Notes under the pieces: generated by a model
Database searches by the model: none
Told to the model about the DNA's origin: nothing
The model's input: the letters and a program-made list of their open reading frames with translations, nothing else
Virus record (IMG/VR): IMGVR_UViG_3300042673_002211
Coordinates: 9,231-73,230 of that record
From: a virus
Direction: 5' to 3' (one strand)
DNA length: 64,000 nt
Program-made: the position numbers and the translations under genes
Shown: positions 22,521 to 35,943 of the stretch, piece by piece
Position numbering within the stretch: the stretch's first letter is position 1
Layout of the letters: each line of letters starts with the position of its first letter

Positions 22521-22522
22521 AA

Positions 22523-24199: not shown

Positions 24200-25030
24200 A
24201 TGGCAAAACACGTAGTAGTTTCATTATCCGGGGGAATGGATTCCTCAACATTATTGCTTAGAGCACTAAGCGAATTTGATACTGTAACAGCAGTATCGTT
24301 TGACTACGGTCAAAAACACCGAGTAGAACTTGATCGAGCACGGACCCTAGTTAACTACTTACTTATTCATAATAAAATAATTAATTATCAAGTAATTAAA
24401 CTTGATGGGTTAGCTGATCTACTTAACTCAGCTTTAGTAACAGGTGGGGGTGAAATACCTGAAGGACACTATGCTGAAGAAAACATGAAAGCAACAGTTG
24501 TTCCTAACCGAAACAAAATCTTCAGTTCAATCACTCAAGCGATTGCTTTATCTATTGCTACTGAGAAAAAAGAAGAATGTTCTATTGCTTTAGGTATTCA
24601 CGCCGGTGATCACGCTATTTATCCTGACTGTCGTCAAGAGTTTCGTGACGCTGATGATCATGCTTTCCGAGTAGGTAACTGGGATAGTGAATTAGTATCA
24701 TACTGGACTCCATATCTTGAAGGCGATAAGTTCACTATCCTGAAAGACGGAGAGAGATTATGTGAAGAACTAGACCTTAATTTTAATCAAATTTATAAAC
24801 GTACTAATACTTCTTATAAACCACTCCAACATACTATTGAAACACACCCTGGATGGACTGAACTAGTATGGTTTAGTGATTATAAGTCAGCTTCTTCAGT
24901 AGAACGAGTTGAAGCATTTATTAAGCTAGGACGTCCTGATCCTGCATCTTATGCAGATGAGACCGGTCCTGTAACTTGGGAACATGTAGTAACAGAAGTA
25001 ACTAAAGTACTAGAAAGTCATGAGCGATAG
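24200..25030 (+). CDS. queC: 7-cyano-7-deazaguanine synthase
   Basis: SLSGGMDSST, FDYGQKH..E, TVVPNRN, HAGDHAIYPDCR.EF. Confidence 0.93.
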   Translation: MAKHVVVSLSGGMDSSTLLLRALSEFDTVTAVSFDYGQKHRVELDRARTLVNYLLIHNKIINYQVIKLDGLADLLNSALVTGGGEIPEGHYAEENMKATVVPNRNKIFSSITQAIALSIATEKKEECSIALGIHAGDHAIYPDCRQEFRDADDHAFRVGNWDSELVSYWTPYLEGDKFTILKDGERLCEELDLNFNQIYKRTNTSYKPLQHTIETHPGWTELVWFSDYKSASSVERVEAFIKLGRPDPASYADETGPVTWEHVVTEVTKVLESHER

Positions 25031-25250
25031 AGATAATTTATATAGAGATATCTTTAATGGTGCAAACAAAAAACACTGGAAAGAAGAACAAAAAAACAAA
25101 AAAATGAAAAAAATCGAAACTTTATTTTTAAAGTATGGACACTGGAGCTTTTTATTTAGCTCACTTTTTGAAGCATCAAGTAATAGTTGGTTAACAGCTG
25201 CTGCTCTTATGTTTCTTTTTATTAATTATCAATATTCAAACAAACAATGA
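25020..25250 (+). CDS. Small membrane protein
   Basis: Two short hydrophobic segments; coupled to neighbours. Confidence 0.5.
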   Translation: MSDRDNLYRDIFNGANKKHWKEEQKNKKMKKIETLFLKYGHWSFLFSSLFEASSNSWLTAAALMFLFINYQYSNKQ

Positions 25251-32358: not shown

Positions 32359-33096
32359 ATGATAAATAAAGGAGAACTACAGTCAACTATCTCAAAATAT
32401 AATTTGGGAGGAATGATTGATGCTGTAAAATGGACAGTTCAAAATAAACATCTTACAATTAAATTTAACGCACCCACTAAGGATATGATTGGGGAGATAA
32501 CGCATACTTCTTTTGATATAGAGGATTGCGAAATTGCTATTTATAATACCTCTCAGTTAGATAAACTGTTAGCTATTACCTCGGGTGATGTTAACCTACA
32601 ATTAGAAAAAATAGGTAAAATATTTGGTAGATTAGTAATCGAGGATACAAATTATAAACTTAATTACTCACTATCTGATCTTTTATTAATCCAAAAACCA
32701 GGTACAGTAATGGACCCAGACAACTATATTGTTGAAAGTGTCCTCGAATCAGATGCTATTTCGGCTGTTATTAGGGCTAAAAATGCTCTACAAAGCGATA
32801 ACGTAAACTTTACTATCACCACAAATTTTGATGGTGAGCAGGTATTAACAATGATATTTGGTGATAACTCAACACACACACATAAGGTGGAGTATATCGT
32901 TCCTAATACGGTTATAACGGGCAACCAATATAATTTCAACACCCCATTCAATTCTGAAATGATCCGCGTTATATTCGCAAATAACAAAGATGCGAATAAA
33001 GCCTATATGAGCTTAAATATAAATGGATTGCTTAGACTTATATTTGAGGGTGATAAATGGAAAAGTACTTACTATATTATAGGAACCACTAATTAA
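32359..33096 (+). CDS. Sliding clamp (gp45/PCNA-like)
   Basis: 245 aa two-domain alpha/beta pattern, terminal STYYI, follows PolB. Confidence 0.7.
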   Translation: MINKGELQSTISKYNLGGMIDAVKWTVQNKHLTIKFNAPTKDMIGEITHTSFDIEDCEIAIYNTSQLDKLLAITSGDVNLQLEKIGKIFGRLVIEDTNYKLNYSLSDLLLIQKPGTVMDPDNYIVESVLESDAISAVIRAKNALQSDNVNFTITTNFDGEQVLTMIFGDNSTHTHKVEYIVPNTVITGNQYNFNTPFNSEMIRVIFANNKDANKAYMSLNINGLLRLIFEGDKWKSTYYIIGTTN

Positions 33097-33156
33097 TAAT
33101 ATTTATTATGGACATAAAATTGTAGCTAGGGCACAAAGTTATGTTAATGTTTAACC

Positions 33157-33173
33157 GCTGATCTTCGGACAGC
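33157..33173 (+). other. 5'-UTR hairpin with C(UUCG)G tetraloop
   Basis: GCTG-A-TC-TTCG-GA-CAGC, 16 nt before the hsp20 ATG. Confidence 0.7.
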
Positions 33174-33189
33174 ACAAATTTAAAATGAT

Positions 33190-33621
33190 ATGAGTACATT
33201 ATTTTTTGAGAGACATATCTCACCATTTGATCTCTTATTTAGAGATTTCTTTAAGTCTGAACTAGACTTTCAACCGGCTAATGAAGCCAAAATTTCCCAC
33301 CCTGTAGATATTTACGAAAATAAGGACGGACTGCATTTCGAAATTGCATGTACGGGTCTTACTAAATCTGATATTGAAATCAATATCGAAGGGGATATCC
33401 TTAAAATCAGTTATAATAAATCAAAGGACGAAACATGTTGTGAAGTAGATGATTGCAAATACATTCACAAAGGAATTGCAAAGCGTTCTTTTAATTTAGG
33501 TTATAAAGTCGCTTCCAAGTTTAATCTCCCAGAATCATCAGCTGAAATGAAAGATGGACTTCTTAAGATTTCAGTACCGTTTGCTGAAGAATCAAAACCA
33601 AAATCACTTAAAATAAAGTAA
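33190..33621 (+). CDS. Small heat-shock protein Hsp20
   Basis: PVDIYE, G..K.DI.I, YIHKGIAKRSF, AEMKDGLLKI.VP. Confidence 0.93.
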   Translation: MSTLFFERHISPFDLLFRDFFKSELDFQPANEAKISHPVDIYENKDGLHFEIACTGLTKSDIEINIEGDILKISYNKSKDETCCEVDDCKYIHKGIAKRSFNLGYKVASKFNLPESSAEMKDGLLKISVPFAEESKPKSLKIK

Positions 33622-33638
33622 TAGTTTTCGATTAAAAA

Positions 33639-33670
33639 CGTGCCCTAGCGCAATTTTGGTCGTATATTCA
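33639..33670 (+). promoter_or_regulatory. Bacteroidota-type promoter before the groES/groEL operon
   Basis: CGTG-N20-TATATTCA, with the conserved TCG before the -7 box. Confidence 0.55.
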
Positions 33671-33691
33671 CGTTATAATTAAATAAATGTT

Positions 33692-33975
33692 ATGAGGACA
33701 AAAGAATCCAAACAGTACACTCGCTATATCAAAGACCCCCTAATTGAACCATACTATATTCAATTAGATGACTATTGTTATGCGGTGCAAAAAGGTATTA
33801 CCGCTGGAGAAAGCGGTAAAGAATACCAACAAACCCTTGGATATTATACTAGTCTAAGCAATGCGCTTGAAGCCATTGCTCGAGATGAAGCTATGAGTGT
33901 CAGCTATGACACGATCCAAGAATTTATCAACACCTATAATCAAATCATGAATCGTTTAAGTAAAATCATTAAAAT

Positions 33976-33979
<4 letters not shown>
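33692..33979 (+). CDS. Hypothetical protein
   Basis: GTTATG start; coupled to groES. Confidence 0.6.

Positions 33980-35943
<1,964 letters not shown>

Follow-up and report, generated by a model that had tools for sequence, protein, structure and literature searches.

Why should the two flanks of a small phage gene be complementary to each other? The gene is the hsp20 ORF (33190-33621, + strand, 143 aa; Pfam HSP20, E 1.3e-11) in a 64,000-nucleotide stretch of viral DNA, here called the window, and the first-pass annotation of this DNA proposed that the hsp20 mRNA is clamped by pairing between its leader and a segment just behind the stop codon. The G + C content of the window is 33%, and its source is a 73-kb viral record with an estimated completeness of 45%. 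All 95 ORFs of at least 50 aa (greedy caller, window 1-64000) lie on the + strand. The gene order around the locus is a DNA-polymerase piece, a sliding-clamp-like ORF (32359-33096, +), hsp20, orf95 (33692-33979, +, 3' of hsp20), Cpn10/GroES, Cpn60/GroEL, orf86 and a clamp-loader, the genes downstream of hsp20 thus including both Cpn10 and Cpn60. No DNA match to the window was found among 50,697 phage records. The nearest isolates share at most 33% identity in Hsp20 and at most 42% in the clamp loader. No tRNA was found in the window. Start regions in the window are mostly without a Shine-Dalgarno sequence, and AAGTTATG or AATGTTATG is frequent there.

The pairing itself reads as the annotation had written it. 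The 5' arm (AAAATTGTAGCTAGGGCAC, 33116-33134, +) and the 3' arm (GTGCCCTAGCGCAATTTT, 33640-33657, +), which begins 19 nt past the hsp20 stop, make a duplex of 18 bp around the whole ORF; it includes a single U·G pair (T33123·G33650), and a single A (33124) is bulged. The GC-rich core is an exact 10-nt inverted repeat (33125-33134 and 33640-33649, 505 nt apart), and the core 10-mer has two matches in the whole window, which are the two arms. When a 556-nt RNA (33110-33665) was folded, the MFE and centroid structures alike contained a 22-bp helix of 33111-33134 with 33640-33661, with bulged A33114 and A33124, so that the predicted pairing reaches beyond both arms. This helix encloses the leader and the whole hsp20 ORF in a closed loop of approximately 500 nt. 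The z-score of the whole fold was -4.23, and 0 of 100 shuffles folded as well.

Among the 95 ORFs of the window, hsp20 had the strongest duplex between 5' and 3' flank (-34.3 kcal/mol, z -5.1), and none of 1500 non-cognate flank pairs was as low, their minimum being -30.4 kcal/mol. The second-best flank duplex of the window belongs to ORF 25020-25250 (-29.4 kcal/mol, z -4.0); its pairing is patchy and lies mostly within neighbouring coding sequence. An inverted repeat by itself is unremarkable here, as 7 were counted in 1 kb. It is conservation, and not the inverted repeat alone, that makes the pairing of the hsp20 arms significant.

Conservation was examined in two sets of relatives. An Hsp20 search of viral contigs gave the first set, in which 80 relatives were kept of 102, 39 of them at 65-98% identity. 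Both flanks were available in 32 of these 39; L027 was omitted for its short upstream flank, and L002, L033 and L036-L039 were without the 5' side. Including the window and minus 4 duplicates, this set comprised 29 distinct flank pairs. The helix was found in all 29, at -22.9 to -34.4 kcal/mol. For the second set, obtained by a GroES search, 80 relatives were kept of 90; hsp20 was present in 58, absent in 15, and the upstream sequence was too short to tell in 7. All 41 new distinct flank pairs from this set had the helix, with hsp20 identities down to 46%. Merged, the two sets covered 81 loci with both flanks, which gave 62 distinct flank pairs. Every one of the 62 contained the helix (at least 15 bp, -22.9 to -34.4 kcal/mol), at hsp20 identities of 46-98% and sliding-clamp identities to the window down to approximately 36%.

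The arm sequences differ between lineages and fall into 10 groups in the first set. When every 5' arm was combined with every 3' region in a 10 x 10 energy matrix, the cognate partner was best in 9 of 10 rows and in all 10 columns; the cognate combinations on the diagonal averaged -28.9, the others -15.9 (sd 4.4). Twelve representatives, drawn from all 10 groups, were also folded at full length and gave a pair probability of at least 0.98 for the helix core. Pair tables were made with core-anchored scripts for the 62 merged pairs (and also for the first 29). Positions -4 to +5 from the core were paired in nearly all 62, and many positions of the helix showed compensatory changes on both sides. 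In the merged set the pair types were GC 25, CG 20 and UA 15 at position -4; CG 36 and UA 21 at position -3; CG 49 and AU 11 at position +3; and AU 38 and GC 13 at position +4. Core G1 and G2 and the preceding A-U pair hardly varied at all, and this near-invariance of the GGG:CCC core and the adjacent A-U is not explained by pairing alone.

A separate tool count covered 8 outer pairs in MAFFT alignment A2, with 5 misaligned rows left in. The whole-stretch MAFFT alignments A1 and A2 (520-580 nt) misplace 3' arms as well as the 5' arms of groups D, E and J, and A1 was not used. In A2, 85.2% of the cells of the outer pairs were paired versus 73.1 ± 1.5 after shuffling, and the covariation score was 0.392 versus 0.209; 0 of 500 shuffles reached either value, but since the sequences are related, shuffle and Wilcoxon figures overstate independence and p-values are not to be taken literally. 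Controls slid by one column were 47% and 58% paired. The annotation had named covariation of the hsp20 flanks as one check on its proposal, and both arms proved to be conserved (62/62), with changes on both sides. Conserved with compensatory changes in this way, the helix that closes the whole hsp20 message is real and under selection.

The pairs also indicate which nucleic acid is under selection. In the 62 merged pairs the third core G is paired as GC in 38, as G·U in 23 and as A-U in 1, and it is never unpaired; read on the opposite strand, the 23 G·U pairs would become C·A mismatches at mid-core. In L156 the change from GGG:CCC, with G·U as the intermediate, has been completed to GGA:UCC. 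The energy of the sense duplex was lower than that of the antisense duplex in 53 of the 62, equal in 2 and higher in 7, the means being -29.5 and -26.0, respectively; in the first set only, sense beat antisense in 23 of 29. In addition, bulges are kept within arm groups. Loose local alignments (GT 33, AC 21) and a gapless best-14-mer scan (GT 28, AC 19) were without clear strand signal, both drifting into the AT-rich complementarity of promoter and motif. The G·U pairs in the core, the L156 path, the energy advantage of the sense strand and the conserved bulges indicate that selection acts on pairing of the sense RNA, and they do not suit DNA repeats bound by protein. The earlier suggestion that the G-U/bulge pattern favours RNA over a DNA inverted repeat therefore holds, and we regard it as very likely that the arms form a selected sense-strand RNA helix.

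Is the helix a property of hsp20 or of the neighbouring genes? Of the 41 distant hsp20 loci (29-34% identity), 36 could be tested, and none had the helix. Neither were both arms kept in any of the 15 relatives that are without hsp20 at the site. Only a 3'-arm remnant is left in L101, L102 and L133, a 10-nt palindrome made up of the two outer stubs in L107 and L108, and a small unrelated local hairpin in L087. L088, on the same contig as L082 and with a clamp 83% identical, has hsp20 nowhere in its 35-kb record and has retained neither GC core. Four relatives (L111, L113, L114, L117) carry another small ORF (start MGFELIKVGD...) at the hsp20 position, without arms, and L110, L120, L157 and L159 have nothing at the hsp20 site. 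The MGFELIKVGD... ORF lies behind the same promoter-like motif as hsp20 and has a very short leader.

All 15 relatives without hsp20 keep the downstream operon, and most keep the TTCGTATATT-type motif that lies downstream of the 3' arm, which shows that the neighbouring genes do not need the 3' arm. As no relative without hsp20 keeps both arms and several have deletion scars, the helix belongs to hsp20. The annotation had also assigned the 3' arm to the promoter of groES/EL. This assignment is not supported, both because motif and operon persist in the hsp20-less relatives without the arm and because in the lineage of L006 and L011 the motif is located upstream of the 3' arm, not behind it. 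It was also considered, and rejected, that hsp20 sits in what was once the loop of a local terminator; the hsp20-less relatives show scars or nothing, and no two-arm hairpin.

Close relatives differ in whether they have hsp20, and the breakpoints fall within or at the arms. This could be expected if the arms were a DNA-level element, namely terminal inverted repeats bounding an hsp20 cassette that is mobile or invertible, and the stubs in L107 and L108 and the 3'-arm remnants in L101, L102 and L133 could be taken in the same sense. However, wherever hsp20 and a recognised flanking gene were found together, the gene was at one locus and in one orientation, the exception being L033, whose downstream genes differ, yet which has a 3'-arm-like sequence behind hsp20. 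No resolvase or integrase family (PF00239, PF00589) was matched in the 73-kb, 45%-complete record, and the contigs of the four RNA-library runs described below contained no strand-switch joints. Moreover, the sequence of the arms varies while pairing is kept, bulges are conserved, and G·U is favoured over its antisense equivalent. The scars would also fit microhomology deletion between the arms. A DNA cassette is therefore highly improbable. In the natural variants without hsp20 (L101, L102, L107, L108, L133, L087 and L082/L088), the interval from the clamp gene to orf95 has its breakpoints within or at the arms, a pattern that looks like microhomology deletion between them.

With a sense RNA helix as the preferred reading, the question becomes where the transcript begins and ends. 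Directly upstream of the 5' arm is a promoter-like 8-mer, TATTTATT (33100-33107, +), which we take to be of late type from its resemblance to the late promoter of T4. An 8-mer of the form TA[TC][ATG]TAT[ATC] is present upstream of the 5' arm in 59 of the 62 distinct relatives, and a ATATTTATAA-like motif in 8 intergenic regions of the window. The bare 8-mer is unspecific in AT-rich DNA, with 29 matches on the + strand and 20 on the - strand of the window. PHROGs gave no late-gene label for the genes behind the 8-mer. The strict motif ATATRTATWA was not enriched. At T4 late promoters, transcription starts approximately 6-7 nt past the element. If the same spacing is assumed here, the predicted +1 leaves 0-2 unpaired nt before the helix in 59 of 59 usable sequences, across which the distance from 8-mer to core varies from 11 to 26 nt; in several groups pairing extends up to approximately 9 nt upstream of the predicted start, so that this flush 5' end is partly produced by cutting the RNA at that start. 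In relatives such as L029, L140 and L152, the sequence that immediately precedes the 5' arm (..ATACGAAAG.. or ..TATACGTATA..) can also pair with the TTCGTATATT motif behind the 3' arm, at 14 of 14 positions in L029, and the complementarity therefore runs beyond the predicted transcript start.

On the 3' side, the promoter-like sequence GTCGTATATTCAC (33659-33671, +) adjoins the helix, without being part of it, and lies ahead of orf95-groES-groEL. It is a copy of a recurrent 13-nt motif, TTCGTAYATTYAC, of which the window contains 7 copies, all on the + strand, versus 2.56 expected. The copies (22543, 27769, 33659, 59082, 61405, 61870 and 62874, +) are intergenic and lie 18-35 nt before start codons. 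Some are located directly behind a local GC hairpin (those at 22521 and 22743 precede the TTCGTATATT-type motif). In relatives of groups A, B and C the motif keeps a constant distance from the hsp20 stop (+38 to +40). From its placement, TTCGTAYATTYAC is probably a phage-specific promoter or regulatory site.

The hsp20 stretch was also found in contigs from RNA libraries of freshwater, lake, river, marine and sediment samples. In total 24 runs from 19 studies were listed, 21 of them recorded as RNA and all stored as contigs, and 4 RNA-library runs were examined. Metatranscriptome contigs from freshwater, river and marine samples contain the stretch, so these phages are common; the phages carrying the hsp20 helix are a widespread group of uncultured aquatic T4-like phages. 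One RNA-library contig, corresponding to 33076-34076, contains both arms, orf95 and the start of groES, although it is an assembled sequence and may stem from DNA carried over into the library. Behind the 3' arm, which across relatives begins 6-28 nt past the stop codon, the + strand showed no local terminator. Given that contig and the lack of a local terminator, the hsp20 message may be polycistronic. Contig breaks near the arms in the four runs are overlaps of approximately 30 nt, as is typical of strain branching. One contig begins at 33116, and there was no place in the four runs where contigs of two studies end together; contigs cannot show RNA starts, RNA ends or single transcripts. A low-depth contig (depth 4) of run X1 skips 73 nt within hsp20 (window 33506-33580), which may be a strain variant or an assembly artefact.

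The missing local terminator raises the possibility that the helix itself is a long-range intrinsic terminator, in which the helix is followed by a U-rich tail and the 5' end of the RNA, at a distance of approximately 500 nt, supplies the upstream half of the stem. At least 5 T were counted in the 8 nt after the helix in 5 of the 10 groups (B, D, E, I and J), and elsewhere in the window local GC hairpins occur directly before the TTCGTATATT-type motif (22521 and 22743). The window itself, in contrast, has 3 T in 8, and groups A, C and H are likewise without a T tract. The loop would measure 505 nt where a short one is usual, and the kinetics of closing a loop of 500 nt are expected to be unfavourable. 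In addition, the RNA-library contig continues through the site, and the hsp20-less relatives mostly have no hairpin at that place. We consider a terminator function very unlikely.

Read-through would suit a second possibility, which the annotation had put forward in the form of an RNase III-like processing stem. Here the duplex would be cut within a polycistronic RNA, excising hsp20 from the messages of the clamp gene and of orf95-groES-groEL. RNase III asks for about two helical turns, and with its outer pairs the duplex has 18-24 bp; no terminator separates hsp20 from the next genes, and the contig just mentioned bridges both arms and the next gene. A precedent is the 5'/3'-UTR duplex of icaR, described as an RNase III substrate in PMC3868564. 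On the other hand, in RNA begun at the neighbouring promoter-like motif the helix of several groups shrinks to 12-15 bp, and an RNase III domain was not found in the 73-kb phage record, 45% complete. Excision of hsp20 by RNase III as the main role is thus unlikely.

The leader holds a second structure. A hairpin, GCTGATCTTCGGACAGC (33157-33173, +), consists of 4 bp, a bulged A, 2 bp (U-A and C-G) and a UUCG loop, and was folded as ((((.((....)))))) in both the MFE and the centroid structure of the 556-nt RNA. A loose search pattern, in which the two inner pairs were fixed and the four outer pairs free, found the 17-nt hairpin in 27 of the 29 first-set sequences; it misses L029, which has a 5-nt loop, and L035. 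Two copies each are present in L006, L007, L009 and L011. In the hairpin alignment A3, with 9 distinct versions, 96.3% of the cells were paired, 4 of the 6 pairs had changed on both sides, and the covariation score was 0.685 versus 0.142, a value reached by 0 of 500 shuffles. The UUCG leader hairpin seen in the first pass is thus present and conserved with covariation. An upstream ORF of six codons (MLMFNR, 33141-33161) also lies in the hsp20 leader and ends within the 5' strand of the hairpin; as a conserved element it was rejected, its ATG being missing in L012, L013 and L018. The sequence GTTTAAC(C) next to it is conserved.

Leaders of hsp20-family genes often carry RNA thermometers, such as those of the ROSE and hsp17 types, and a thermosensor was among the functions first suggested for this transcript: heat would melt the structure and free the translation of hsp20. 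In some relatives the architecture would allow this. The corresponding bulged hairpin of L015, L017 and L034 contains a GGAG located 5-7 nt ahead of the AUG, and the second copy in L006, L007, L009 and L011 includes AAGGA and the AUG, so that the hairpin holds the Shine-Dalgarno sequence in all seven. These hairpins are at 2986-3002 in L006, L007, L009 and L011, at 2978-2994 in L015 and at 2877-2893 in L034. By their sequence, they could act as translational hairpins of the thermometer type. In the window, however, no ribosome site lies within the hairpin, whose end is 16 nt ahead of the AUG. The long-range helix, which stops 56 nt short of the AUG, likewise leaves the ribosome site free, and its pairs were predicted with P=1.00 throughout the range of 10 to 75 °C. 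For the leader hairpin, the predicted probability falls gradually over this range, from 0.89 to 0.15. An Rfam search gave no match at gathering score in the whole window; in 33050-33720 it gave two matches at chance level (E 1.7 and 3.8), and no thermometer family was among them. The thermosensor proposal was therefore dropped for the helix, and an RNA thermometer controlling hsp20 in the window is extremely improbable.

Taken together, the helix probably controls the stability or the processing of the hsp20 mRNA. The best explanation, which we hold to be somewhat more likely than not, is a cis-acting long-range helix of the hsp20 sense transcript that would serve as an end-shielding or processing clamp. 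Transcription would start approximately 6-7 nt after the promoter-like 8-mer, provided that the T4 spacing applies, and the first nucleotides of the mRNA would be base-paired. The extreme 5' end of the message would pair with the segment just behind the stop codon, giving a closed loop of approximately 500 nt, and the helix would seal both the 5' terminus and that segment. By analogy with hbs of Bacillus subtilis, the full-length hsp20 mRNA could then be long-lived. In read-through transcripts, the duplex of 18-24 bp might in addition offer a site for double-strand-specific cleavage. That shielding of the ends or stabilisation is the main job of the helix has about even odds. It is a doubtful further step to see here a natural closed-loop prokaryotic mRNA, in which one helix would end or process the transcript, seal both of its ends and return the terminating ribosome to the vicinity of the start, the cassette being gained or lost as a unit.

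The comparative record of this element is unusually deep, comprising 62 natural variants, compensatory changes, a conserved wobble and natural deletion variants. It offers a system in which to ask whether bacterial and phage messages have a closed-loop architecture, how nucleases that depend on the 5' end handle a long-range paired terminus, and how phages tune their own set of chaperones (Hsp20 with GroES/GroEL). Full-text literature searches, supplements aside, did not bring up a comparable element for any DNA phage or for hsp20; the 5'/3'-UTR interactions found there included none in a DNA phage and none that encloses an ORF from the first transcribed bases.

Several known systems share parts of the arrangement. 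16S and 23S rRNA are flanked by long-range processing stems, and T7 early mRNAs are cut at RNase III sites that are local hairpins. Like the rRNA stems, the hsp20 arms form a long-range duplex around a whole functional RNA, although rRNA is not an mRNA. In T7, phage messages are likewise cut into units, but at local hairpins, whereas the hsp20 arms are long-range and cleavage there is only proposed. Stem-loops at the 5' terminus, of the type known from ompA, stabilise mRNA, a paired 5' terminus blocking decay that depends on the 5' end. These stem-loops are local, while the partner strand of the 5' arm of hsp20 is behind the stop codon.

The closest known systems are the 5'/3'-UTR interactions of hbs, icaR and hok. 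In Staphylococcus aureus icaR, a duplex of 5' and 3' regions blocks initiation and is cut by RNase III (PMC3868564), and in hok mRNA, as cited in the same paper, a fold-back silences translation. In these, as at the phage locus, a message folds its 3' end back onto its own 5' region; the icaR and hok pairings, however, cover the Shine-Dalgarno or initiation region, whereas the phage hsp20 helix leaves the ribosome site free. For hbs, PMC5737220 describes a 14-bp interaction of 5' and 3' UTR (-19 kcal/mol), proven by compensatory mutants, that limits endonuclease cleavage in the leader and slows decay; it is located upstream of a normal terminator, and the very 5' end is not involved. The phage helix, by contrast, has 15-24 bp, seems to take in the bases transcribed first and has no adjoining terminator, and its role in decay is proposed by analogy. 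Common to both is a small gene whose 5' UTR is complementary to the segment just behind its ORF, in the case of hbs a highly expressed gene whose leader is masked from ribonucleases by the helix.
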